Origin: a virus
Lineage: Duplodnaviria > Heunggongvirae > Uroviricota > Caudoviricetes
Reading direction: 5' to 3' (one strand)
IMG/VR virus record: IMGVR_UViG_3300037502_002518
Location: 5,712-69,711 of that record
DNA: 64,000 bases
Position 1 is the stretch's first letter, and every line of letters starts with the position of its first letter. The notes beneath the pieces are model-generated. The model saw nothing but the letters and a program-made list of their open reading frames with translations, did not search any database and had not been told where the DNA came from. The position numbers and the translations under genes are program-made. Positions 1-52,075 of the stretch are shown one piece after another.

Positions 1-13
1 GTAAATAAGTATA

Positions 14-55
14 TTGACAAGTTAAACCTTACATGGTACAATGTATCATGTAAGG
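14..55 (+). promoter_or_regulatory. early promoter unit: TTGACA(14-19)-17bp-TACAAT(37-42) with 9-bp inverted repeat CCTTACATG/CATGTAAGG flanking the -10
   Basis: consensus sigma-A hexamers with 17-bp spacer; perfect dyad read directly from the sequence; followed by conserved leader AAATCTGAAATGGAG. Confidence 0.6.
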
Positions 56-74
56 TGAACAAATAAAATCTGAA

Positions 75-647
75 ATGGAGACGATGAAAATGAGACAATT
101 AAACATTAAATTTTTAGAAGAGAATCACAAAGAAATTTTGGAAGTGAATGGTAAGCTATATCAAGAAGTAAAGGATAATTATATTGACGGTGAAATGATG
201 TTTATTTCAGACCAATTAGATATTTTAAGATATTCTTTGGCTGATTGGTCAATTGGTAGTTATAATCATAACTATTTAAATATTAGAGATTATGGTAAGT
301 TTATTCTAGCAGTAAAAGAAATGGAAGAGAGTATTCCTTCTTTAAACGATAGCTACAAGTCATTTATTGAGGATATGGTTGAAAAAGTTTATAAATGTCA
401 TGATACAGAAATGTATACAGAAGAATATGAAAGTTTGTACAGAGAGGTTAAAAATGGGTCTAAATATCTTGCTAATGAAATTGTAAAAAATTGGACTGAA
501 ATTTTAGAGCCAAGCCGAGAAACGATTAAACAATATTTCTATGAATTTTATATTGACGATTATTTTTCTGATAGAGTAGACGATTTTATGATTGACGACG
601 ATATGGTATTGTATGAAAATATTTTAAAATCTTATTCTTGTAAATAA
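75..647 (+). CDS. hypothetical early protein, strongly acidic (D/E-rich C-terminal half); true start may be ATG at 84 or 90
   Basis: 190-aa ORF directly downstream of promoter/RBS; no recognised domain. Confidence 0.5.
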   Translation: METMKMRQLNIKFLEENHKEILEVNGKLYQEVKDNYIDGEMMFISDQLDILRYSLADWSIGSYNHNYLNIRDYGKFILAVKEMEESIPSLNDSYKSFIEDMVEKVYKCHDTEMYTEEYESLYREVKNGSKYLANEIVKNWTEILEPSRETIKQYFYEFYIDDYFSDRVDDFMIDDDMVLYENILKSYSCK

Positions 648-662
648 ACTTTTAAAAAGGTA

Positions 663-707
663 TTGACAATAACGTGTTTCCTTGATATGATTAAGTCAAG
701 GAAACAC
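663..707 (+). promoter_or_regulatory. early promoter unit: TTGACA-17bp-TATGAT with 12-bp inverted repeat GTGTTTCCTTGA/TCAAGGAAACAC around the -10
   Basis: hexamers and perfect dyad seen in sequence. Confidence 0.6.
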
Positions 708-766
708 TGGGTCAAAAAATAAATAAAACGTATGTTTTATCAAAATATAAAAAGGGAGAGATTGAA

Positions 767-943
767 ATGAATAGATTGCAAGTTTTTATTAATAATAAAT
801 GGGAATATGTATTTTGCAGAAATGAATTAAAGAGTTTTCCAGTAATTACAGATGATAAATTAAAGGCTGTTAGGGGAGATGAATATAGTCTACAATATTT
901 TGAAAGCAATTTTGGCAACTTAAAATTTAAAATAAGCAAATGA
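767..943 (+). CDS. hypothetical small protein (58 aa)
   Basis: ORF with RBS AAAGGGAGAG 7 nt upstream, not in supplied track (<60 aa); fits between promoter unit and next gene. Confidence 0.4.
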   Translation: MNRLQVFINNKWEYVFCRNELKSFPVITDDKLKAVRGDEYSLQYFESNFGNLKFKISK

Positions 944-982
944 AAAATCTGTTTTATTAAAACTGAAAGGGAGCTGTTAAAA

Positions 983-1312
983 ATGATTAGCAACGATAGA
1001 AAATTAGAAATTTTAGAAGAGAATGGTCGTATTAGTTGGGAGACGTATATTTATTTGAATCACTTTAACACTAGAACGTGTGGAGTTGATGGTCTGAAAG
1101 AATTGATTAATATTTGCGACAAAAACAACATTGATTTTTATGGAGTATCAAGTTTTTCAAACGGTAAAGAAATAAATGAAATGACAAGATTGTATGGTGT
1201 AGATGAGCGCAAAGTAATTTATTTAGGCTCTTACTATGGCGATTCATTATTTGATGAATATGGCGATGAATCAATCATTGATGATGATAGAATTTATTTA
1301 ATTGTAAAGTAA
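983..1312 (+). CDS. hypothetical early protein (109 aa)
   Basis: ORF with RBS GAAAGGGAG; acidic C-terminus. Confidence 0.5.
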   Translation: MISNDRKLEILEENGRISWETYIYLNHFNTRTCGVDGLKELINICDKNNIDFYGVSSFSNGKEINEMTRLYGVDERKVIYLGSYYGDSLFDEYGDESIIDDDRIYLIVK

Positions 1313-1334
1313 ATAATAATATTTAAATAATGTA

Positions 1335-1382
1335 TTGACAATCACTTAACCTTGTGATAATATATAGTTACAAGGTTAAGTG
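1335..1382 (+). promoter_or_regulatory. early promoter unit: TTGACA-17bp-TAATAT with 13-bp perfect inverted repeat CACTTAACCTTGT/ACAAGGTTAAGTG around the -10
   Basis: seen in sequence. Confidence 0.6.
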
Positions 1383-1420
1383 ATACAAAATAAAACCAAA
1401 AACTGAAAGGAAGTATTAAA

Positions 1421-1744
1421 ATGTTAGAATTAAAAGCATATGAAAGCTTAAGTAAAAATGTAAAGAATGAGATTGAAGACAATCTAGAATTCATGTTTGA
1501 AAAATATGAATCAGTAGAATCATTAATTGAGCAAGGTGAAATTAGATTATTTAATAGAAGTCAATTAATTGAATTTCTATTCTTTGACGATAGCAATAGT
1601 GATAAGAAAACATTGTTAGAATTGTTAAGCACAACAGATACACAGTTTCAAGGCTATAATGATGGATTAGATTATATCGTTCACAATAATTACGACAACG
1701 TTTTTGAATTATCAAATGGCATGTATTTATTTGTATGGCACTAA
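1421..1744 (+). CDS. hypothetical early protein (107 aa)
   Basis: ORF after RBS GAAAGGAAG. Confidence 0.5.
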   Translation: MLELKAYESLSKNVKNEIEDNLEFMFEKYESVESLIEQGEIRLFNRSQLIEFLFFDDSNSDKKTLLELLSTTDTQFQGYNDGLDYIVHNNYDNVFELSNGMYLFVWH

Positions 1745-1788
1745 GATTGAACAATAAAAATAAAAATCTGAAAATGGAGATGTTAAAG

Positions 1789-2010
1789 ATGAAAATTAAA
1801 AACATGGAGTCAAATAAATTTTACGGTGAAGGGGTATATATTCTAGCATACAATGAAGATGGATTAGAAGTAAGGGAAAGACAATACTTTGATAGTCAAG
1901 AAGATTTTAAAGATTGCCTAAAATTTCATGAAAACAATTTTGATTTTGTAGAAATTTTTACAGAGGACTATGCAAAATATCATGGCATTGGCTTTCCAGA
2001 AGGAGATTGA
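1789..2010 (+). CDS. hypothetical early protein (73 aa; track ORF 1735-2010 trimmed to ATG with proper RBS spacing)
   Basis: conserved leader AAATCTGAAAATGGAG then ATG 9 nt after GGAG. Confidence 0.45.
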   Translation: MKIKNMESNKFYGEGVYILAYNEDGLEVRERQYFDSQEDFKDCLKFHENNFDFVEIFTEDYAKYHGIGFPEGD

Positions 2011-2215
2011 ATTTTATAAGTGCAGGCGATTCAATTATCGCTTGCACAAAGGATTATTCAATCCAAAAAAATCTGATAGGGAGATGTTAAAAATGGCAAT
2101 TGATAACAAAGTTTTTGATGAAATTAATTCACAAGCTAGAAAACGAGGTTGTGTTGTCCTAGCAATTAAAGATGATTTACTGGGTCAAGACAATATTAAG
2201 CAGGTAGTACTGTAG
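1970..2215 (+). CDS. hypothetical small protein; probable true start ATG 2083/2092 after RBS GATAGGGAG
   Basis: ORF overlapping previous gene in another frame; start uncertain. Confidence 0.3.
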   Translation: MQNIMALAFQKEIEFYKCRRFNYRLHKGLFNPKKSDREMLKMAIDNKVFDEINSQARKRGCVVLAIKDDLLGQDNIKQVVL

Positions 2216-2363
2216 GACATGAGTAAAGAGGAGTTTATTTATACTCTTTACAATGCGACTGAACAGGCTTTCTTTGGTGGAAAGTATTATAATTATCATT
2301 ACAATTATGACGTGAGTGAAGCTTATGTATTAGCTTTTAAAAACTTTAGGGGTGTGATGAACG

Positions 2364-2639
2364 ATGAATAAAAAAATGAAAGAATATGAATTAGAAAATA
2401 ATTTTAGATATTATGTAAAAGAAAAGCAAATAAGACTTAAAAGATTAGGTAGAAATGTAAAAGTATTTGAGATTTTTAATGACATTGAAAAAGAGACAGG
2501 AATGACGTTTTCTAACATTAAAAGCATTTATCACAATAAAACTAATCCTTCAATTTTTTCCGCACTGTTACTAGCAAAGTATTTTAGAGTAAATGTTGAA
2601 GATATATTTAATATTGAATATGAAAAGGAGAATGATTAA
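2364..2639 (+). CDS. putative helix-turn-helix (XRE-like) DNA-binding protein
   Basis: 91-aa ORF; central segment LKRLGRNVKVFEIFNDIEKETGMTFSNIKSIYHN resembles a Cro/C1-type HTH. Confidence 0.45.
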   Translation: MNKKMKEYELENNFRYYVKEKQIRLKRLGRNVKVFEIFNDIEKETGMTFSNIKSIYHNKTNPSIFSALLLAKYFRVNVEDIFNIEYEKEND

Positions 2640-2640
2640 G

Positions 2641-2802
2641 ATGAAAATGACAATGGAAGAAATTAGAAATAAAAAGAACAAACTATTTGAAATGATTATG
2701 ATTGAAAAGAAAAAAGGTAATGAGCCAAGTAAAGAGTTGGTTAAAGAATATCGCAAGGCACAAAAGCAACACAAACAGATTGTTAAAGAATTATATTATT
2801 AA
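2641..2802 (+). CDS. hypothetical small basic protein (53 aa)
   Basis: ATG preceded by AAGGAGAATGATTAAG; lysine-rich. Confidence 0.4.
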   Translation: MKMTMEEIRNKKNKLFEMIMIEKKKGNEPSKELVKEYRKAQKQHKQIVKELYY

Positions 2803-2817
2803 TTTAAAAAAAATGTA

Positions 2818-2846
2818 TTGACAATAACAATAATGCATGATATGAT
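2818..2846 (+). promoter_or_regulatory. early promoter TTGACA-17bp-TATGAT
   Basis: hexamers seen in sequence; same upstream context (TGTATTGACAATAAC) as other copies. Confidence 0.55.
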
Positions 2847-2883
2847 TAAGTCAAGTTAAAAAACACTTTAGGAGGAATTATAA

Positions 2884-3456
2884 ATGAGAGAAAACAAATT
2901 TATTTTAGGATTCAATGAGCAAGGAAGTTTAGTTTTAGGTAGCTTTAGAATTAGAGAAAATGATTCAAAAAAAGAGTTTTGTGCTTCTTTTGAAGAGGTT
3001 GAGCCTTTTGTCGCAACGGATTCATATATCTTAGAACGTTTAGAAAATTTAGTTGAGGGTATGGATTCAGATTTGAAGTTTGAGATTTGTGAAAGATTTG
3101 ATGTTAGACCTAGTGAGTTAGCTGAAACAATTTATCAATATGATGGAATTGAAAGTGCGGTAGACATATCACTTTTCCCATATTCTTTTGAAGTTGATGG
3201 TGCTGAAGATGATGTTTATTTTGAATCAGGGGGTTGTGGACAGGTGGATGTTTTTGAAGGCTTTGGTGATGGAGATTTATTTGTAAGTGAAGAGTTTTAT
3301 AATTTGATTAGAGACACATGGAAAGAATATCATTTAAATGAAATTCCAGAAGATAAGCTAGAAGAGATGATGGAGCTATATGAAAAAGAAAAAGAAAAAG
3401 ATACAGACAGTTTAATTGTAAAATATTTAGAAAAAAATATTGCTATAGAATTATAA
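2884..3456 (+). CDS. hypothetical early protein, very acidic (190 aa)
   Basis: RBS TTAGGAGGAATT; long D/E/F-rich segments. Confidence 0.5.
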   Translation: MRENKFILGFNEQGSLVLGSFRIRENDSKKEFCASFEEVEPFVATDSYILERLENLVEGMDSDLKFEICERFDVRPSELAETIYQYDGIESAVDISLFPYSFEVDGAEDDVYFESGGCGQVDVFEGFGDGDLFVSEEFYNLIRDTWKEYHLNEIPEDKLEEMMELYEKEKEKDTDSLIVKYLEKNIAIEL

Positions 3457-3475
3457 ATTAATTTTAAAAAATGTA

Positions 3476-3521
3476 TTGACAACAACCTAAGCTTATGATA
3501 TGATATAGTCATAAGCTTAGG
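3476..3521 (+). promoter_or_regulatory. early promoter unit: TTGACA-17bp-TATGAT with 13-bp perfect inverted repeat CCTAAGCTTATGA/TCATAAGCTTAGG
   Basis: seen in sequence. Confidence 0.6.
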
Positions 3522-3544
3522 AAACAATTTAGGAGGTTTTATAA

Positions 3545-3724
3545 ATGGCTAGTAGATATAAAAGAACGTTTAAGTTTTTCGATACAGAAGACCAAGCAAA
3601 AACATTTTGTGATAATGAGAATAAAAATAGTTATATCAAAAAGAATCATAAAGCGACTTATACAGACTGGACAAGTCAAGACGGAAGTGAAAGTAAATTT
3701 GTAGCATGGTACGTAACAAAATAA
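3545..3724 (+). CDS. hypothetical small protein (59 aa)
   Basis: RBS TTAGGAGGTTTT then ATG; not in supplied track (<60 aa). Confidence 0.45.
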   Translation: MASRYKRTFKFFDTEDQAKTFCDNENKNSYIKKNHKATYTDWTSQDGSESKFVAWYVTK

Positions 3725-3753
3725 AATGATGGTTTCATTAAAAATGTTAGAAG

Positions 3754-4014
3754 GTGGATTTTATGCAGAGGTTAAAAAATACTTTCTCTAAAAGATTAAA
3801 AATAGCAAGAAAACAAAGTGGGCTGTCATTAAGGAAATTAGCACCATTAGTTGGGACTACTTATGTTAGCTTAAATCTTTGGGAAAATGGTAAAGCATTC
3901 CCACAAGAGAGATTTATATACAAAATTTCAGAAGTATTGGATGTTAGTTCTGATTGGCTATTAGGTTTTGACAATGAGTATAATTACTGTCCTCATTGTG
4001 GTGAAAAATTGTAA
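3754..4014 (+). CDS. putative HTH XRE-family transcriptional regulator with C-terminal CxxC (alternative start ATG 3763)
   Basis: RLKIARKQSGLSLRKLAPLVGTTYVSLNLWENGKAFP is a classic XRE HTH. Confidence 0.55.
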   Translation: MDFMQRLKNTFSKRLKIARKQSGLSLRKLAPLVGTTYVSLNLWENGKAFPQERFIYKISEVLDVSSDWLLGFDNEYNYCPHCGEKL

Positions 4015-4058
4015 ATAAAAGGATAATTTGATTTGAATTTGAAAGGGGTTGAATTAAT

Positions 4059-4238
4059 ATGAATAAACTTTTGGTGCAAGTTAACTTAGATTACAATGGG
4101 GAGTATGACTTCAACAATTATGGAATGGAAGTCTACTGGGTAGACAAATATTCACAAGACTTGTATGGAATACAAGGAGAATTGACAAAAGGTGAAGTTG
4201 AAAGCATACCATTTGTCATTCATGTTGAATCTAAATAA
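4059..4238 (+). CDS. hypothetical small protein (59 aa)
   Basis: RBS GAAAGGGG then ATG; not in supplied track. Confidence 0.4.
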   Translation: MNKLLVQVNLDYNGEYDFNNYGMEVYWVDKYSQDLYGIQGELTKGEVESIPFVIHVESK

Positions 4239-4268
4239 TAAAACAATTCAAAAAAGGGAGATATTAAC

Positions 4269-4721
4269 ATGGGAAAATCATATGCAGTTTATTTAGTTGA
4301 TTTAGAAAATAATAGTGAAACGTGTATTGGATTCTTTAAGGACAAAGACGATGCAAAAAAGTACTTTAAAAGAGTTGAGCAAGATATTGAAAAAAACAAA
4401 GAACAGGATAAGTGCAAGGCTGTCATGAGGTTGGTGTGGATTATGGCAAAAAAAAGAAATGTGGGAAGCTTAAAAAGGGGTGACAATATGAATACAAACA
4501 AAGAGAAAGAATTCACTTATAATGGTATTAATTGCAAGGTGTCTTATAATAGAACGGTAAAAGAATTTATATTAGAAGTTGAACGGAAAGATGGGTTGCC
4601 AAAGATTGTACTACTTTTTGGAGCTAAAAGATTTAGCCAACGGTCGCTAAAAATTGCTTACGATGTTGCTAACAAACGTGTCCTGCCTTATATGTTTGGA
4701 GAAAAGAAATACTCTCTATGA
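4269..4721 (+). CDS. hypothetical basic protein (150 aa)
   Basis: RBS AAAGGGAG; no recognised domain. Confidence 0.5.
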   Translation: MGKSYAVYLVDLENNSETCIGFFKDKDDAKKYFKRVEQDIEKNKEQDKCKAVMRLVWIMAKKRNVGSLKRGDNMNTNKEKEFTYNGINCKVSYNRTVKEFILEVERKDGLPKIVLLFGAKRFSQRSLKIAYDVANKRVLPYMFGEKKYSL

Positions 4722-4796
4722 GCCTCTAATCGCCTCTGAGGGGCATGCTATTGTAAATAAAACTAAGATTTTATTTATAAATAGTAAACAATGTTG

Positions 4797-4824
4797 TTGA
4801 CAAACAAAATGGTTATGCTATAAT
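4797..4824 (+). promoter_or_regulatory. promoter TTGACA-16bp-TATAAT
   Basis: hexamers seen in sequence. Confidence 0.55.
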
Positions 4825-4846
4825 GATTATATAATCAAAAAAGGAG

Positions 4847-5041
4847 ATGACTTTTATGAATAGCAATAGAGAAGTTGAAAAAATTATAAAATCTATTCAA
4901 AGGGATTTAGAAAAAAACAAGCAGGAGATTAAAGAAGTTGAATATGGTCCAATAGAATACAACTTCATCAATGGCAAGATTAAACAGGCAGAAGATACAC
5001 TTACTTATATAGATATGATGTTAAATGACACTGTATCTTAA
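4847..5041 (+). CDS. hypothetical small protein (64 aa)
   Basis: RBS AAAGGAGATG. Confidence 0.4.
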   Translation: MTFMNSNREVEKIIKSIQRDLEKNKQEIKEVEYGPIEYNFINGKIKQAEDTLTYIDMMLNDTVS

Positions 5042-5068
5042 AATTAATAAAAAAAGTAAATAAGTCTA

Positions 5069-5097
5069 TTGACAAGTTAAAGATGATGTGTTATGCT
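5069..5097 (+). promoter_or_regulatory. early promoter TTGACA-17bp-TATGCT followed by 7-bp dyad TGCTTAA/TTAAGCA and leader AAATCTGAAAGGAAG
   Basis: seen in sequence. Confidence 0.5.
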
Positions 5098-5140
5098 TAA
5101 GTTGTAAGGTTAAGCAAGACAAATTAAATCTGAAAGGAAG

Positions 5141-5425
5141 ATGGTCACTATGATAAACAAAGAAAAGGTACTTAAAAAAGCAGGGGAATTGGGAATGGAG
5201 TTAGGTTGTTATTCAAAGTCGATTGATGACATGACACAACCTCAATTAAAGAAGGTTCTGGATAACATGGAATACGAAGCAGATACAGACGTTTCAATCA
5301 AACGTAAAAAACATGTTGTCCAGATTAGCATTGTAGACTTCAAGGACAGACAAGAGATTGACCTTCTGGCAATCACAAAAGATGAGTTCATTAGTCGATA
5401 CGGAAATGAAAGATACCTAGATTAA
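5141..5425 (+). CDS. hypothetical protein (94 aa; start may be ATG 5150)
   Basis: ORF after conserved leader. Confidence 0.5.
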   Translation: MVTMINKEKVLKKAGELGMELGCYSKSIDDMTQPQLKKVLDNMEYEADTDVSIKRKKHVVQISIVDFKDRQEIDLLAITKDEFISRYGNERYLD

Positions 5426-5452
5426 TTTCTAGGTATCTAAAATAAAAAGGAG

Positions 5453-5671
5453 ATGTTTGAGGTGAGTTTAGATTTTAACGATTTAAAGACAATTGAAATA
5501 ATTCTAAAAGAAGATAAACGTTTTGCACAAAATTCAATTGACTATCGATACAACAAAGCGGGTTCAATTCATTTGTCTGATTCAGATAGAAGGTATGTTG
5601 AATCACAAAAAAACAAGGTTGAATTGATTGATGACCTGTTATCAAAAATTAATACTATAAAGGTTTATTAA
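5453..5671 (+). CDS. hypothetical protein (72 aa)
   Basis: RBS AAAAGGAGATG. Confidence 0.45.
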   Translation: MFEVSLDFNDLKTIEIILKEDKRFAQNSIDYRYNKAGSIHLSDSDRRYVESQKNKVELIDDLLSKINTIKVY

Positions 5672-5685
5672 AAAATAAAAAGGAG

Positions 5686-5901
5686 ATGTTTAAAATGAAC
5701 AAAAATGAAAACAAAACAAACACGTTACTACTGGTAGTTATTGCAGGTGCAATCCTATTCTTTGGGATTTTTGCAATGAACAAGTTTAATGAAAGCGAAG
5801 AAGAAAAAGAACGAGAAGAACGATATGAACAGCTAGAAAAACAGAAAGAAGAGATTGATAAAGTTAACGAGTATTTAGACCTTAGAGAAGAGCTTGAATA
5901 G
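5686..5901 (+). CDS. small membrane protein (one TM helix followed by an E/K-rich tail)
   Basis: hydrophobic stretch LLLVVIAGAILFFGIFAM. Confidence 0.5.
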   Translation: MFKMNKNENKTNTLLLVVIAGAILFFGIFAMNKFNESEEEKEREERYEQLEKQKEEIDKVNEYLDLREELE

Positions 5902-5915
5902 AAGTTAACAATTAG

Positions 5916-5960
5916 TTTACAGCCTACCATTAAAATGTTATAATTTAAATGGTAGGCTGT
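5916..5960 (+). promoter_or_regulatory. promoter unit: TTTACA-17bp-TATAAT with 13-bp perfect inverted repeat ACAGCCTACCATT/AATGGTAGGCTGT spanning from the -35 region to beyond the -10
   Basis: seen in sequence. Confidence 0.55.
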
Positions 5961-5987
5961 ACACAATAAAGCAGGAGATGATGAGAA

Positions 5988-6188
5988 ATGGGAAACTATA
6001 TCTATGATGAGAAGACAGACTTATATTACAAGAAAGAAGTAGAAGACGTCAAAAGTATTGATGATTTATTAGATGAATATAACAATGCAAAAATGCTATA
6101 TAAAATCTTTAATGATGATTCATATCTTGAGAAAATGGAAGAGGTAAAAGAAGAGATGAAAGGGATGATTGATAATGAAAGAAATTAA
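5988..6188 (+). CDS. hypothetical small acidic protein
   Basis: RBS GCAGGAGATG. Confidence 0.45.
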   Translation: MGNYIYDEKTDLYYKKEVEDVKSIDDLLDEYNNAKMLYKIFNDDSYLEKMEEVKEEMKGMIDNERN

Positions 6189-6603
6189 TTTTGATGAGTT
6201 GAAAGAGTTTTTGTTATACAAGAGAATTGCAGAGTGGGACGAGAATACGCTTATCTTAGATGACTTCACATTTATCTCAATCGAATGTACCGATTGGGAT
6301 TGCTGTGCAGGTGCAGGTGGCACATTTTCTGATGTTGAGCTGGATGCAGTTATAACAGACATTAAGATTGGTGATGTAAAAAATATAAATGATTCAGATA
6401 CTGTCGTAAGAGAGATTGAAATGAAAATATTTCATAATCAAAATAAAGTGGTATCTGTAAATGCTGAAGCAAATGCAGGTAACGGTGGATATTATTATAG
6501 TGTAGCATCGGTTGTATTGAGAACAGTATCAAATGGAGAAATGAAATTCAAGTTGATAGGTGCAGATAGAACTTTAGAAGGCACAAAGGAGAGAGTTGGA
6601 TGA
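6169..6603 (+). CDS. hypothetical protein (144 aa)
   Basis: ORF overlapping neighbours by ATGA-type coupling. Confidence 0.5.
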   Translation: MIMKEINFDELKEFLLYKRIAEWDENTLILDDFTFISIECTDWDCCAGAGGTFSDVELDAVITDIKIGDVKNINDSDTVVREIEMKIFHNQNKVVSVNAEANAGNGGYYYSVASVVLRTVSNGEMKFKLIGADRTLEGTKERVG

Positions 6604-6863
6604 AAAAGATAACACCAAGAGAAAAACGAATCATTCACGTTTTGGAAATGAAAGCAAGCAATACAGTTGCATCATCTCACTTTGAGGAGACAGATGAATC
6701 AAGACAATCATACAAAGACTTTACAGAGATATATAGACGTATTATAATGGAAGATGGAGAGGGTTATTATTCAGATGAATTTTTAACGATCGTAGAAAAT
6801 ATTAAAAAACAATTAATCGAAGCATTGAAAGATGTGCATGGAAAAAGATTAGGGAAAAGGTGA
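6600..6863 (+). CDS. hypothetical protein (87 aa)
   Basis: translationally coupled ORF. Confidence 0.5.
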   Translation: MKKITPREKRIIHVLEMKASNTVASSHFEETDESRQSYKDFTEIYRRIIMEDGEGYYSDEFLTIVENIKKQLIEALKDVHGKRLGKR

Positions 6864-6868
6864 ATTAA

Positions 6869-7180
6869 GTGGACAAAGATAAGTTATATCAAGAGAGATT
6901 TGGAAATTATGTGAAAGAGAAATTAAAAATAAGAAATAATTTTATGACTGGAATAGTGAAAAAAATGTCTATTCCAGAATTTGCCAAAGAAGTTGGTGTC
7001 TCAAAGGTATGGATGTATGAAATTATTAATGGCAATAAAAAAGCTTCAGATGAAAACATTGTAAATATATCTAGGGTGTTAGAGTTAGATGAAGTTGAAT
7101 CATTTAAAGTTGCAGGCAGAATTCATCCAGATGATTTAGAAGATTACAAAAAGAAATATTTAAAAAAATATTATTTATAG
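6869..7180 (+). CDS. putative HTH DNA-binding protein
   Basis: segment MSIPEFAKEVGVSKVWMYEIINGNKKASDENIVNISRVL resembles an XRE-type HTH. Confidence 0.45.
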   Translation: MDKDKLYQERFGNYVKEKLKIRNNFMTGIVKKMSIPEFAKEVGVSKVWMYEIINGNKKASDENIVNISRVLELDEVESFKVAGRIHPDDLEDYKKKYLKKYYL

Positions 7181-7495
7181 GTGGTGGTGGTTATGAACAA
7201 ATATAAGATGAGTCCAGAAAAGTACAAAGAACTCAGAAATGTATCAATTAGCAATATAGACCAGAGAGATGATGTTAGACACATTGTAAAAAGAAAAGAT
7301 GATAGGTTTAAATTTGACCTATATCAAGGCAAAAATAATGAGTTTAAAGAGTTGGAATCCAACGAAGAGAAAGAATATAGCATTGTTGACAAATTGATTG
7401 CAAATGTTCTTATGTTCCCCCCTAATAGGGCAGTCAAACGATATTTGTTTTGGACTTTGATATTAGCATTTTTGGGGAATATGTTTTTATTTTAG
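7181..7495 (+). CDS. hypothetical protein with C-terminal TM helix
   Basis: ORF; hydrophobic C-terminus. Confidence 0.45.
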   Translation: MVVVMNKYKMSPEKYKELRNVSISNIDQRDDVRHIVKRKDDRFKFDLYQGKNNEFKELESNEEKEYSIVDKLIANVLMFPPNRAVKRYLFWTLILAFLGNMFLF

Positions 7496-7522
7496 ATAAA
7501 AAAATAAAAAATAATAATATAT

Positions 7523-7562
7523 ATTGACTTTTAAAGAATATTTCTGTATCATTTAGGGTATA
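7523..7562 (+). promoter_or_regulatory. promoter TTGACT-17bp-TATCAT (and a second TATAAT 7557-7562)
   Basis: seen in sequence. Confidence 0.5.
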
Positions 7563-7608
7563 ATAATTGTAAAGGAACAAAGGGGAAAAAAGAAAGGGAT
7601 GGGGGACA

Positions 7609-8568
7609 ATGTTTAATCAAGAATTCAAAAAATCATTCTTAGACACATTCGAGAATGTAAAAACAAAAGAAACGTATTCAAGAATTTTTAAAAATTCAAT
7701 GACACTAGAGACAAAACTAAACAAAGACCTTTACAATTTTTCAAAAGCAGAAATAAATACTTTTCTAAAAGAATATCTAGTAGCTAAAACAAAACAGTCA
7801 ATCAGAACTTACGTCAGTGTTATTTCAAGATATGTATATTTTGCAAACGTTCAAGGGGTGACGGATAACACTGGAGAATATGTAAGCAAAAATCAAAAAT
7901 ACTTCTTTAAATATTTAAACAAAGAGACACAAATATATTTGTCAAAAAGTGAAATAGATTCTATCATCTTAAGCTTAGTAAATGCTCAAGATGCTTTTAT
8001 CATCAGTGCTTTATTCGATGGAATCGAGGGGACTAAAGTTGAAGAGTTAACAAGATTAAAAATTCAAGATATAGATGTTTTATCCAGAGTAGCAAAGGTA
8101 AAAAGTAAAAAAGGGGAAAGAGAAGTATCTATATCAAAAAGAACTGTTGATTTGGCTTTGATGGCAAATGGAGAGGTAGAGTATTATAAAAAGAATGGTG
8201 AATCAGAGCATGAAAGAGACACCATAGAGCTTGTTGAAAATTCACCATATATTTTAAAACCATCGAATTCCAGACCATCAAACGAGGGTTATGTTAGTCA
8301 CTATACAGTTTATAATAGACTTGAGATGATTAAAAGCCTAGAAGAATTTGAAGAGTTAAAAGATGCTTTAACAACAAAAAATATAATGAGAAGTGGTATG
8401 ATTTATGAAGCAAGTAAGATTGTTCAAGAAAATGGTACGTTAAGTCTGGACGATGTGAAAGACATTTGTAAGAAGTATAACGTTAGATACGTTTGGTCAG
8501 TGAATGACTTCTTAAACAAAGATGTGGTTGAATCAATATATGGAACATTGACAAAAGAAGCTGTTTAA
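7609..8568 (+). CDS. hypothetical 319-aa protein; N-terminal part weakly resembles the integrase SAM-like core-binding fold (speculative)
   Basis: long ORF with RBS AAAGGGATGGGGGA; no clear catalytic motifs. Confidence 0.5.
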   Translation: MFNQEFKKSFLDTFENVKTKETYSRIFKNSMTLETKLNKDLYNFSKAEINTFLKEYLVAKTKQSIRTYVSVISRYVYFANVQGVTDNTGEYVSKNQKYFFKYLNKETQIYLSKSEIDSIILSLVNAQDAFIISALFDGIEGTKVEELTRLKIQDIDVLSRVAKVKSKKGEREVSISKRTVDLALMANGEVEYYKKNGESEHERDTIELVENSPYILKPSNSRPSNEGYVSHYTVYNRLEMIKSLEEFEELKDALTTKNIMRSGMIYEASKIVQENGTLSLDDVKDICKKYNVRYVWSVNDFLNKDVVESIYGTLTKEAV

Positions 8569-8607
8569 ATTACTTGTCTACCAAAAGTAGGCAAGTAATT
8601 TTTTTTC
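8569..8607 (+). terminator. rho-independent terminator (13-bp stem ATTACTTGtCTAC/GTAGgCAAGTAAT plus T8)
   Basis: hairpin followed by T-run, immediately after stop of 7609-8568. Confidence 0.75.
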
Positions 8608-8684
8608 AAATAAAGGGTTGCTTTTCCAACAGAGTAATGATAAGATATAAATATAAGTCATCAAATATTGAAAGGGCGGTTTTA

Positions 8685-9089
8685 ATGGAATTAACTTTAA
8701 AAGAGCTAGGGTTTGTAGGTAAAAATTATGAGAACATGAGTCATGTGTTAAGCCTATTAAATGACAATGAGTATTTTGAGTCATATCTGTTAGACAATAT
8801 AGATAATTTAAAAAGCCCACTTGACATTCATCAGTCGTTTAGGTTAGAATTAATTAAGAATAAGCGTTGCACTCAAAAACAGTTTAAAAAATACTTAGAA
8901 AAGGGGTGGGATATAATAGCATATGAGAGTGTGATGTTTTGTAAAATGAACCGCCTTGCAGAAAAGAAATTTAAAAAAATTATTAATTCTGATTTGACCA
9001 ACGATGATTTTTATGATAAGTTAGTAGAGAACAGTTTTGAGTACAGTCCGTTATTGTGTCTCAAAAAAATTGAACAAGAGTTAGCTTAA
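8685..9089 (+). CDS. hypothetical protein (134 aa; track ORF 8574-9089 trimmed to ATG after RBS GAAAGGGCGG)
   Basis: ORF begins downstream of the terminator. Confidence 0.45.
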   Translation: MELTLKELGFVGKNYENMSHVLSLLNDNEYFESYLLDNIDNLKSPLDIHQSFRLELIKNKRCTQKQFKKYLEKGWDIIAYESVMFCKMNRLAEKKFKKIINSDLTNDDFYDKLVENSFEYSPLLCLKKIEQELA

Positions 9090-28332: not shown

Positions 28333-28524
28333 ATGAATATTCCAGAAAACGTGAAGAAGTATGCAAGCTATAACATGCATCTTGAATCAGATATGCTTTT
28401 AGAAATTATTAAAAAAAGAAGATTGAATATGGCATATCGAATGACTGACGAAGAAAAGTGGATTGTACAAAACAAAGAGTCTTTTGTAAAATATTTCAAT
28501 AGTGAAAAAGGAGATTCTCAATGA
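28333..28524 (+). CDS. hypothetical protein (63 aa)
   Basis: RBS GAGGTGAGAGCATG. Confidence 0.45.
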   Translation: MNIPENVKKYASYNMHLESDMLLEIIKKRRLNMAYRMTDEEKWIVQNKESFVKYFNSEKGDSQ

Positions 28525-30764
28525 GAAAACTAGTTGTCTTACGTGGCGCTCCTGCCTCTGGAAAAAGCACATTCGTTAAAAACCACAACTTGGAAGACTA
28601 TACAATTAGTACGGACGACATTAGATTACTCTATGGTAGTCCAATAATTGGAGAAGATGGAAATACGTCAATATCTCAAAAAAACAACAAGCAAGTTTTT
28701 GAGTTGATGTTTGATGTTTTAGAACATAGAATGTTGAATGGTGAATTTATTGTTGTTGATGCCACTCACTGCAATAAAAAAGACTTTAACAAGTACAAGT
28801 CATTGGCTAAGTTGCATCGTTACAGAGTTTATGTGGTGGATTTTAACAGAACCTTAGAAGAGTTAAAAGAAAATAACGAAAAGAGAAAATTTACATCTAA
28901 GTTTGTTCCCGAGCATGTAATCGAAAAAATGCACTTTAAACAACAATCTTGGGAGATTCCAAGCTGGGCAAATGTAATAAAGGAAGAAGATTTCCACGAG
29001 TCCATCATTGGAAGTAAGAGATTCAACTATAACAATTGGGAGGAAATTCACCATATTGGGGATATACATGGTTGTTATGATACACTTATGAATTTTGTTG
29101 GTGAATTTTTAAATCCAGAACACCTCTATATCTTTACTGGGGATTTATTTGACAGAGGAGAACAAAATAAGGAAGTTTTAAACTTTATGTTGAACAACTA
29201 TTACAAGGACAATGTTGTTTTTATCGAAGGAAATCATGATACTCCAATGAACTACTATGCTAACAACAGACCAGATTTAATTAAGAATAGAGTGTTCAAA
29301 GAGAGTACAATCCCTCAAATTGAAGAAGGGCTGTCCGACAAAGAGATTGTTGAAATGAAAAGGAAAATTAGACATGCAATGAGACACTTTAAAGATTATG
29401 TTCATTACACTTTTGGAGATGACGATGGAGATAACGTAAAAGTTTTTGTCTCACATGGAGGACTTTCTAACAACCCAATGGTATCAATGTCCATGATTCC
29501 CTCTGTTCAATTCATTAGAGGTGTTGGAGATTACAGTTTAGATATTGACAAGAATTGGTCAGAAAGTAATTCAAACATTTTGCAGATACATGGTCATCGA
29601 AATACTTTTGAACACCCTATTGTGGCAGGAAAGAAATCTGTCAATTTAGAGGGTGGTGTCGAATCTGGTGGAGATTTGCGAGTATACACACTATATAAGA
29701 ACGAGCATGGTCTTGTTTTTCAATATTGTGAAGAATACGATAGCCAAGTAGAATCAAAAAACGAGGTAAAAACAGATGAAGAAAATCTAGTTGATAAAAT
29801 GAGAAACAACAATTTTATTCAAGAAAAACAACTGGGTGACAACATCAGCTCTTTTAATTTTACTAGAAAGGCATTTAAAAAAGGTGTTTGGAATGACTTG
29901 ACAGTAAAGGCAAGAGGATTATTTATAAACACCCACTGTAATGAGATTGTGGCAAGGGGTTACGACAAGTTTTTCAATATAAATGAGGTTGAGTCTACAA
30001 AAGAGGAAAACCTAAAAAGAGGTTTAAAATTTCCTGTTCGTGTATATGAAAAACCAAATGGATACCTTGGTCTTCTTGGATATAATAGTGAAAAAGATGA
30101 GCTTGTATTTGCATCAAAATCACAAACGAATAGTCCTCATGCAAAATGGTTTAAAGAATTATTTTACAAAAAAACAACAGAAATGTCACGATATTATATT
30201 AAGAATTATTTAAAAGAGCATAATTCATCTTTAACGTTTGAAGTAATTTCATTTAATGACCCACACATCATAGAGTATTCAGAAGAGGATATAATCTTAC
30301 TCGATATTATTAAACGTGATATTGATTTTAGCAAAGAGCCTTATGGAAAAGCGGATGGAGATTATAGTTTGTCTGAATCTGTAACAACTCTTGCAGGTAT
30401 TATGGGTTGGAATTGTAAAAAATTACTTGCTATCTTTGGTAGTTATGAACAGTATCATAGTTGGTACAAAAGAGAAATGACCCAAACAACTAAGAAAATT
30501 GAGGGATATGTCATTGAAGACAGCAAAGGGTTTATGTTTAAAATTAAGATGCCATACTATAATTTTTGGAAGCAGATTAGGACAGCAAAAGATATGTATG
30601 CAAAAGGAAATTTGAATATAGATTCACTATATGAAAGAACTCATAATAGACTTGCTACAAAATGGATTATCAATGAATTTGAGAACATAAACAAAGAAGA
30701 ACTGAAGTCAATGTCAATTATTGATTTTAGAAACTATTTTAAAGAGAAAGAAGGAACATTTTAA
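28521..30764 (+). CDS. tri-domain polynucleotide kinase-phosphatase with C-terminal RNA/DNA ligase-like nucleotidyltransferase domain (Pnkp-like RNA repair enzyme)
   Basis: N-terminal P-loop GAPASGKST; calcineurin-type phosphoesterase GDIHGCYDTL, GDLFDRG, GNHD; nucleotidyltransferase motif I KPNGYLGL in C-terminal third. Confidence 0.6.
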   Translation: MRKLVVLRGAPASGKSTFVKNHNLEDYTISTDDIRLLYGSPIIGEDGNTSISQKNNKQVFELMFDVLEHRMLNGEFIVVDATHCNKKDFNKYKSLAKLHRYRVYVVDFNRTLEELKENNEKRKFTSKFVPEHVIEKMHFKQQSWEIPSWANVIKEEDFHESIIGSKRFNYNNWEEIHHIGDIHGCYDTLMNFVGEFLNPEHLYIFTGDLFDRGEQNKEVLNFMLNNYYKDNVVFIEGNHDTPMNYYANNRPDLIKNRVFKESTIPQIEEGLSDKEIVEMKRKIRHAMRHFKDYVHYTFGDDDGDNVKVFVSHGGLSNNPMVSMSMIPSVQFIRGVGDYSLDIDKNWSESNSNILQIHGHRNTFEHPIVAGKKSVNLEGGVESGGDLRVYTLYKNEHGLVFQYCEEYDSQVESKNEVKTDEENLVDKMRNNNFIQEKQLGDNISSFNFTRKAFKKGVWNDLTVKARGLFINTHCNEIVARGYDKFFNINEVESTKEENLKRGLKFPVRVYEKPNGYLGLLGYNSEKDELVFASKSQTNSPHAKWFKELFYKKTTEMSRYYIKNYLKEHNSSLTFEVISFNDPHIIEYSEEDIILLDIIKRDIDFSKEPYGKADGDYSLSESVTTLAGIMGWNCKKLLAIFGSYEQYHSWYKREMTQTTKKIEGYVIEDSKGFMFKIKMPYYNFWKQIRTAKDMYAKGNLNIDSLYERTHNRLATKWIINEFENINKEELKSMSIIDFRNYFKEKEGTF

Positions 30765-44196: not shown

Positions 44197-44239
44197 TACA
44201 AGTTTCAAATAAAATTTTTAATAAATGCCAAATAAAAGG

Positions 44240-44268
44240 TTGACTTTTGTTTGGCATTTCGCTATACT
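44240..44268 (+). promoter_or_regulatory. promoter TTGACT-17bp-TATACT preceded by TGCCAAATAAAA (44226-44237), which forms a near-perfect dyad with TTTTGTTTGGCA (44246-44257)
   Basis: seen in sequence. Confidence 0.55.
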
Positions 44269-52027: not shown

Positions 52028-52031
52028 ATTA

Positions 52032-52075
52032 AAAGGTAAAGTTTGTGAGATAATCATAGACTTTACCTTTTTGTT
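52032..52075 (+). terminator. terminator hairpin AAAGGTAAAG...CTTTACCTTT (19-nt loop) plus TTTTTGTT
   Basis: seen in sequence after tdk. Confidence 0.55.

Follow-up and report, generated by a model that had tools for sequence, protein, structure and literature searches.

In the first 6 kb of a 64,000-nucleotide stretch of viral DNA (positions 5,712 to 69,711 of the IMG/VR record IMGVR_UViG_3300037502_002518; the whole stretch is called the window here), five strong early promoters each hold their -10 hexamer in the loop of a perfect inverted repeat, or dyad. On balance, these units are probably cassettes similar to the promoter-early stem-loops (PeSLs) of T4-type phages: the stem-loop would form only in read-through RNA and would act there as an attenuator, a processing site or a stability boundary, marking or insulating the upstream message. 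A sequence-only reading of this DNA had reported five units with the -10 in a perfect dyad, and all five were recovered at the positions it gave. It had put the arms at 9-13 bp; they are indeed perfect, but the maximal arms, taken from an exhaustive search for perfect inverted repeats, are slightly longer at 10-15 bp. The units (U1 to U5) and their dyads are the following.

14-56, + strand: U1, with TTGACA at 14-19, a 17-bp spacer and TGgTACAAT, the -10 lying at 37-42.
26-35 / 47-56: dyad of U1, ACCTTACATG, 10 bp, loop of 11 nt.
663-707, + strand: U2, with TTGACA at 663-668 and the -10 TATGAT at 686-691.
674-685 / 696-707: dyad of U2, GTGTTTCCTTGA, 12 bp, loop of 10 nt.
1335-1384, + strand: U3, with TTGACA at 1335-1340 and the -10 TAATAT at 1358-1363.
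1341-1355 / 1370-1384: dyad of U3, ATCACTTAACCTTGT, 15 bp, loop of 14 nt.
3476-3521, + strand: U4, with TTGACA at 3476-3481 and the -10 TATGAT at 3499-3504.
3486-3498 / 3509-3521: dyad of U4, CCTAAGCTTATGA, 13 bp, loop of 10 nt.
5915-5964, + strand: U5, with TTTACA at 5916-5921 and the -10 TATAAT at 5939-5944.
5918-5931 / 5948-5961: dyad of U5, TACAGCCTACCATT, 14 bp, loop of 16 nt.

All five promoters match the sigma-A consensus at 10-11 of 12 positions, each has a TG extension and a spacer of 17 bp, and the dyad loop contains the -10 throughout. An A/T-rich flank, such as ttttaaaaaatgta, lies upstream of the units, and 13-41 nt separate the upstream stop codon from the promoter. U5 is centred differently: its dyad is shifted 4 bp upstream relative to U1-U4, and its 5' arm runs into the -35. 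Transcription is predicted to start ~7 nt past the -10, which is 0-4 nt inside the 3' arm; this placement agrees with the earlier statement that RNA from the embedded promoter contains only that arm. The geometry had also been called non-random, and the counts bear this out. Six perfect dyads of at least 10 bp were observed in 1-6000, against a mean of 0.37 and a maximum of 3 in 200 dinucleotide shuffles, and four of at least 12 bp were observed against a mean of 0.03. As RNA, the units fold with energies between -19 and -26 kcal/mol (z-scores from -5.2 to -8.3). In the 9 nt 3' of each stem, 1-3 T residues are present, and none of the five stems was reported by the terminator scan.

According to the sequence-only reading the arms are unrelated between copies, and on this point it has to be corrected. 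U3 and U4, which share one register, have the same base at 10 of 13 arm positions, and the three that differ are each matched on the opposite arm. The exact U4 dyad recurs 1.9 kb upstream of the window, at position 444 of L002, a locus that is the same contig from 2392 bases further upstream (L002 position = window position + 2392). The 3' arms lie within a common initial transcribed sequence, ATAAG(G)TTAAG..., which is also found in paralogues lacking a dyad. The arms are diverged paralogues. A more distant relative, L124, has kept the same leader start despite a different core promoter. Because the leader start occurs both there and in the dyad-less paralogues, it looks like the older element, to which the spacer was fitted.

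To follow the pairing across copies, six in-register sequences (U2, U3, U4, L002:444 and two orthologues) were aligned on the -35 and -10. In this alignment, with the caveat that the structure was read from the same six sequences, both partners change in 9 of 17 pairs, and pairing holds in 87% of the cells. None of 500 shuffles reached the observed values, and sliding the partner by 1-3 columns left at most four such pairs. The covariation supports the conclusion that pairing has been maintained and sequence has not, in line with the conserved geometry and free sequence described by the sequence-only reading.

Relatives of the block, contigs 91-97% identical to parts of it, were obtained by a metagenome pattern scan. 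In L031 the U4 orthologue reads CCTAAGATTATGA / TCATAATCTTAGG, a compensatory double change from C-G to A-T. The outer pair of the U1 orthologue in L041 is T-A, compared with A-T in the window, and U2 is identical in L041 and L060. The U3 orthologue in L066 has kept 13 bp, followed by a G.T pair (G-C in the window) and an A-T pair. At the site of a dyad-less window promoter at 5069, L031 has a different promoter in a new 16-bp dyad, CTTTCATTTGACCTTA ... TAAGGTCAAATGAAAG. In the variants L005 and L006 (98.5% identity), the outer 3' arm of U5 contains TAAT in place of CTGT, which shortens the dyad from 14 to 9 bp; this clustered difference looks like a templated multi-base event. Larger rearrangements were also seen. 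In L031, other sequence stands in place of window 3745-5102, and homology picks up again at the promoter start site; L066 is without 1751-2004 and diverges upstream of ~1300. Homology breakpoints thus lie at or beside promoters in the only two informative relatives, L031 and L066, and the repeated cassettes appear to be places of module swapping between related phages. A 59-amino-acid protein downstream of U4 has homologues in only four clusters, and the corresponding contigs L123-L125 are too distant or without a dyad. In L123, a -10 is enclosed by one 12-bp dyad whose loop measures 23 nt. Separately, early promoters of this more distant relative (443, 652, 7067, 14750, 15141, 16480) are conserved around and after the -35, CTACTTGACAnnTAGCTA...CTATG, which looks like a sequence-specific operator and not like variable dyads.

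The sequence-only reading had deduced a mechanism at the DNA level from the argument that no RNA would ever hold both arms. This deduction does not stand. All genes are on the + strand, the units are arranged head to tail, and a consensus scan found no canonical + strand terminator in 1-8566, so transcripts from upstream promoters should carry both arms. The first such terminator follows the gene for an MrpR homologue; MrpR is the master repressor of SPbeta and has a tyrosine-recombinase fold.

7609-8568, + strand: MrpR homologue, listed as context.
8567-8601, + strand: first canonical intrinsic terminator, a 15-pair stem followed by TTTTTT, just 3' of the MrpR-like gene.

In the mechanism that we favor, the -35, TG and -10 would form an ordinary strong sigma-A promoter, and the parts that are free in sequence, namely the spacer and the first 10-15 transcribed bases, would have been made complementary to each other. 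RNA begun at the embedded promoter would carry the 3' arm alone, as an open A-rich leader. Read-through RNA would carry both arms and fold into a hairpin of 13-22 pairs right after the upstream stop codon. This hairpin most likely marks where the upstream message ends; possible effects are attenuation or pausing of read-through, a block to 3' exonucleases, or cleavage at the site by a double-strand ribonuclease. Templated palindrome correction and cassette recombination probably add to the perfection and the spread of the dyads. We infer both the identity of the folded molecule, the + sense RNA, and the function of the hairpin.

Promoter and hairpin were also found without each other in the block.

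2818-2846, + strand: strong promoter without a long dyad, having only TGA...TCA; a paralogue of U2, near-identical outside the arms.
4797-4824, + strand: strong promoter with 12 of 12 consensus matches and no dyad around the -10.
5069-5097, + strand: strong dyad-less promoter; in the relative L031 its place is taken by a different promoter, within a 16-bp dyad.
2020-2047, + strand: intercistronic hairpin without promoter or T-tract; 11 pairs including one G.T, which is a wobble in the + sense only.
5411-5438, + strand: hairpin over the stop codon of the open reading frame (ORF) 5141-5425; 11 perfect pairs, no + strand T-tract, kept in L031.

The dyad is dispensable for the promoter, since the close paralogues at 2818 and 5069 are without it. 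Three more promoters are located in the upstream stretch of L002, among them the one at L002:444. Together, this stretch and the block contain 11 promoters in ~8.4 kb, 6 of them with dyads, and none of the strong promoter-like sites in the remaining 58 kb of the window has such a dyad. Upstream of many early genes stands a conserved block of leader and ribosome-binding sequence, AAA(A/T)CTGAAAGGAAG (window 959, 1399 and 5123; L002:250, 504 and 2048, that is, window -2142, -1888 and -344; and others), so that, together with the promoters, whole regulatory regions are repeated.

The two promoter-less hairpins, at 2020-2047 and 5411-5438, had been noticed by the sequence-only reading and are real. 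The first has a paralogue at L002:1210-1237, in which one compensated pair differs and A-T stands in place of the G.T. Such a combination is the usual path of RNA stem evolution and leans, as a suggestion only, towards a folded + strand. The two copies share the 3' flank aaaggattat and belong to a repeated intercistronic cassette. The sequence-only reading had named dyads away from promoters as evidence against its proposal, and such evidence was found in part: in the T-tract-less hairpins at 2020-2047, 5411-5438 and L002:1210-1237, and in terminator hairpins elsewhere in the window (44223-44259 and 52031-52071) that overlap the -35 of the following promoter. In Psychrobacillus phage Perkons, two 12-bp perfect hairpins (L001:5766-5802 and 6502-6542) follow stop codons of early genes, with GATAAT in the loops and no recognisable -35. 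The existence of same-type hairpins without a promoter, these two included, indicates a role of the hairpin that is independent of initiation.

The mismatches at the stems were inspected for a difference between the strands. As RNA, the U1 stem grows to 14 pairs via G36.U46, and U3 reaches 18 pairs including two wobbles. All non-Watson-Crick pairs that extend or interrupt stems are G.T in the + sense in U1, U2, U3 (twice), U4, U3 of L066 and 2020-2047, and no A.C pair was seen in U1-U4, their orthologues or the extra hairpin. The U5 stem has other, non-wobble mismatches. For 5 of 5 units and for both extra hairpins, RNA of the + sense exceeds that of the - sense in stability, by 1.4-5.8 kcal/mol. 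This strand asymmetry points towards a folded + strand, as a suggestion only.

The same observations bear on a structure at the DNA level. The dyad could extrude as a cruciform in negatively supercoiled DNA, or the non-template strand could fold, so that the -10 becomes single-stranded; this might tune initiation, sense the topology of the injected DNA or bind a structure-specific protein. The arms are perfectly Watson-Crick paired on both strands, and a stable DNA hairpin is predicted for either strand (-9 to -16 kcal/mol, z-scores of -4.8 to -8). In U1-U4 and the L031 promoter the dyad centres coincide at -8/-7 to within half a base pair, the loop is the AT-rich region that melts first, and the covariation fits DNA pairing and RNA pairing equally. 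However, loops of 8-16 nt make cruciform extrusion costly, and a cruciform would pair -2 to +12 with the spacer and thereby remove the downstream duplex that is clamped by RNA polymerase. The same consensus promoter is kept in close paralogues without a dyad, and identical hairpins exist without a promoter. All stem-extending mismatches of U1-U4 are G.T in the + sense, which is A.C on the other strand, and the common geometry of these four units is explained by common descent. A DNA-level structure is therefore a rather improbable explanation, and positive support for a specific mechanism of this type is absent here. Its most pointed form is doubtful to a still greater degree: the dyads would act on DNA either by making the -10 single-stranded in an extruded structure, with firing set by the topology or strandedness of the injected genome, or by being read as a structure by the MrpR-like repressor. 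Integron integrases, which read folded attC sites, offer a parallel for structure recognition by a recombinase-fold repressor. If true, this reading would amount to a structure-coded promoter switch for the host sigma-A polymerase.

The units were compared with the PeSL cassettes described by Arbiol et al. (2010) in the phages RB49 and phi1 (PMC2839356). A PeSL consists of a strong sigma-70 early promoter together with a stem-loop, which is situated between -35 and -10 or overlaps with the -10 (PMC2839356). PeSLs flank ORFans (ORFs without database homologues) in hyperplastic regions and have a role in module shuffling, and the reduction of lacZ read-through by one PeSL stem-loop was comparable to that by the rrnB T1 terminator (PMC2839356). 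We checked the RB49 sequence upstream of ORFs 185, 198, 226 and 227. There, the spacer contains the 5' arm, the -10 falls within the loop and 3' arm, and the stem is not followed by a T-tract. One RB49 example of this geometry is TTGACAccggatcGGGGATATagcataATATCCCC. The window units likewise have a strong early promoter of host-sigma consensus with an AT-rich upstream tract and a stable stem-loop overlapping the promoter; the RB49 subclass has their layout, and the T-tract is absent in both. In both cases the cassettes are located between the stop codon of a small ORFan and the next Shine-Dalgarno sequence, many copies are present in a plastic early region, and close relatives vary, with breakpoints at the cassettes.

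The differences concern the host, the phage lineage and the details of the stem-loop. The window belongs to an SPbeta-like phage of ~30% G+C and not to a T4-type coliphage. Its arms, and those of its relatives, are 10-16 bp long, AT-rich and copy-specific, in contrast to the short stems of PeSLs, which are usually GGGG...CCCC. The window loops of 8-16 nt hold the whole TGn-TATAAT element, and the 3' arm is the conserved leader start. Terminator activity and mini-circle formation are further points of comparison, hypothetical for the window units. An architecture of promoter plus stem-loop has already been described under the name PeSL, and by analogy the window units would match it rather than represent a new DNA-structure mechanism.

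Several points weigh against a hairpin acting in read-through RNA. The asymmetry between G.T and A.C comprises ~5 partly non-independent cases, and a G- and T-rich + strand slightly favors such an asymmetry. Read-through, hairpin formation and an effect on RNA are all presumed for an uncultured phage. The five stems have no T-tract and so are not canonical intrinsic terminators, which are used elsewhere in the window. Their 64 consecutive perfect Watson-Crick pairs contain no internal wobble and are more perfect than most long-lived RNA stems; such perfection would also fit DNA-level pairing or templated correction by strand switching. A purely intercistronic RNA hairpin would need no centring on the -10. 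Common descent accounts for most of the agreement in centre among U1-U4, yet a similar layout was arrived at separately by U5 and by the L031 promoter.

The perfection of the arms also bears on the possibility that the dyads are a by-product or a tool of genome dynamics. In this scenario, a short ancestral repeat around the -10 was extended and perfected by intrastrand template switching, and the resulting dyads are hot spots for module exchange with little or no regulation. Template switching is in agreement with dyads that have no internal mismatches, with the clustered 3-4-nt CTGT/TAAT difference in the U5 3' arm, which changes the dyad length in one step, and with the 3-bp seed TGA...TCA in the dyad-less paralogue at 2818. 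A more general role in genome dynamics is in line with the homology breakpoints at promoters and with the finding that PeSLs recombine and shuffle ORFans (PMC2839356). Template switching gives no account of why 6-7 independent dyads are all located at promoter or cistron boundaries and none in coding DNA, and the G.T wobbles in U3 of L066 and in 2020-2047 have stayed uncorrected. As the main explanation this scenario is unlikely, and it is compatible with, not exclusive of, the stem-loop in read-through RNA.

A further possibility is that the dyads are operators for dimeric DNA-binding proteins, either the MrpR homologue or small helix-turn-helix (HTH) proteins of the block. Relatives of MrpR bind 11-13-bp inverted arms around a spacer. 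The window encodes an MrpR homologue at 7609-8568 and HTH proteins at 2364-2639 and 3754-4014, and a palindrome centred on the -10 is a classic operator layout. However, a single phage would have to provide a separate specificity for each of at least six different arm sequences, perfect arms of 10-16 bp are much longer than operator half-sites, and the compensated substitutions keep pairing and not sequence. The view of the sequence-only reading that a single sequence-specific repressor cannot explain five different dyads is upheld, as the arms vary between units and covary. Moreover, long dyads at strong promoters were found in none of Perkons, SPbeta and the contigs L015, L019 and L020, the last four of which carry MrpR or a homologue. 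The nearest cases there are a 7-bp dyad in L019 and promoter-less hairpins in Perkons and L020. The absence of such dyads from these phages and contigs indicates that the feature is specific to the lineage of the window and not tied to MrpR. Operators of this type are very improbable.

In SPbeta itself, MrpR binds a repeated element, SPBRE, a conserved 15-bp sequence in the spacer and -10 of early promoters (PMC10516654). The window resembles this system in having a repeated spacer/-10 element in early promoters and an MrpR homologue encoded beside the block, but its dyads vary in sequence and conserve pairing, whereas SPBRE is the same sequence throughout. A better candidate for an operator is the motif TGCCAAATAAAA, which resembles the CAAATACAAA core of SPBRE and is for this reason a candidate operator for the MrpR homologue. 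With at most one mismatch, the motif has 12 copies on the + strand compared with 1.5 expected, including 9140, 10248, 12519, 14777, 15295, 19081, 44226, 47446 and 52093. Most copies are at promoters or leaders of replication-block genes; 19081 is inside a spacer and 52093 just after a -10. Two other ideas were rejected. A shared operator ATAAGKTTAAG is not enriched outside the paralogous promoters (9 matches vs 6.1 expected). An antisense terminator was rejected by inspection: the complement of the -35 region provides only a weak, displaced T-rich run, and no genes or promoters point that way in the block.

Other known systems were considered next to the PeSLs. Rho-independent terminators have a GC-rich hairpin followed directly by a T-tract, a pattern that none of the five units shows. 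Terminator-promoter junctions are similar in that the hairpin is built from the sequence of the next promoter. In the window, terminator-type hairpins at 44223-44259 and 52031-52071 overlap the next promoter in a different register, with the -35 (TTGACT or TAGACT) in the loop and 3' arm and the -10 following 17 nt later. The five early units differ from such junctions in having no T-tract and in being centred on the -10 and not on the -35. Among contigs matched by the pattern scan, viral contig L022 has an 11-bp GC-rich dyad enclosing a consensus -10, then ATTTTTAT, a T-tract terminator. The unrelated contig L063 (Ga0255047_10020352) has three consensus promoters in 3.5 kb with a GGGTT/AACCC dyad around each -35, an arrangement that is PeSL-like with G/C tracts. 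Overlap of hairpin and promoter is common in phage-like DNA, judged from these two contigs.

Processing hairpins provide a second comparison. Ribonuclease III hairpins of T7 and SP82/SPO1 are located between early genes in polycistronic RNA, and in lambda sib retroregulation the full hairpin is present only in the longer, read-through transcript. The window units are similar as intercistronic hairpins in early RNA, and their predicted stems of 13-22 pairs would in principle be long enough. No Rfam family was matched in 1-9000 at a permissive threshold; the search returned only one sub-threshold chance match. In the host-takeover region of SPO1 the hairpins are wholly downstream of the start and are carried by local transcripts, whereas local transcripts in the window are without the 5' arm.

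Inverted repeats at promoters that act early after DNA entry are also known from the virion RNA polymerase promoters of N4, with stems of 5-7 bp, 3-nt loops, conserved bases and a dedicated polymerase, and from plasmid Frpo/ssi sequences, in which the -35 and -10 are created by stem pairing. The window resembles both in this respect, but it has complete duplex sigma-A promoters with the -35 outside the dyad and the -10 in a loop of 8-16 nt.

The window is part of a 117-kb metagenome contig (JGI 3300035670, Ga0310129_0000135). The phage is uncultured, lacks a close relative among deposited phages, has ~30% G+C and is SPbeta-like in gene content, with genes for a DNA polymerase III alpha-type polymerase, YorF, YorH, a DnaG-type protein and the MrpR homologue. 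Bases 1-7500 contain ~30 small genes, all on the + strand and upstream of the replication genes; from their location and the kind of promoter in front of them, they form an early block, with genes that belong to no known family. In a Pfam check of 10 flanked gene products, 7 had no match and only 1 reached the curated cut-off. A megablast search of 1-6000 against 50,697 phage records gave no match, and blastn against the same records gave only a 175-nt match to one small gene of Perkons. IMG/VR scans with two early or nearby proteins did not find relatives, and an exact look-up of the first early protein found nothing. In the variants L005-L008 (98.5% identical), ~400 bp are inserted at window ~7501-7517, directly in front of the MrpR-like gene; the insertion carries an additional ORF of 124-132 amino acids. 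At 28521-30764 the window encodes a protein of 747 amino acids in which polynucleotide kinase, phosphatase and T4-type RNA ligase 1 are fused; this RNA repair enzyme has 41% identity to proteins of SPbeta-like phages.

With these units, the idea of a promoter and stem-loop cassette is extended from T4-type coliphages to an unrelated SPbeta-like phage of low G+C content, and the presence of such cassettes in an unrelated lineage suggests that the design arose more than once. The version in the window is unusually clean. Its loop contains the extended -10 in full, and its 5' arm, an "anti-leader", can pair with the beginning of the unit's own transcript. One stretch of DNA would thereby specify two RNA states, an open leader after a local start and a hairpin after read-through. 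As loop and stem can be mutated separately and the stem leaves the promoter elements untouched, such cassettes would be attractive as compact synthetic insulator-promoter parts. For the phage, the finding bears on how tandem early units without terminators may be insulated from one another, and on the part that hairpins may take in termination, processing or decay.

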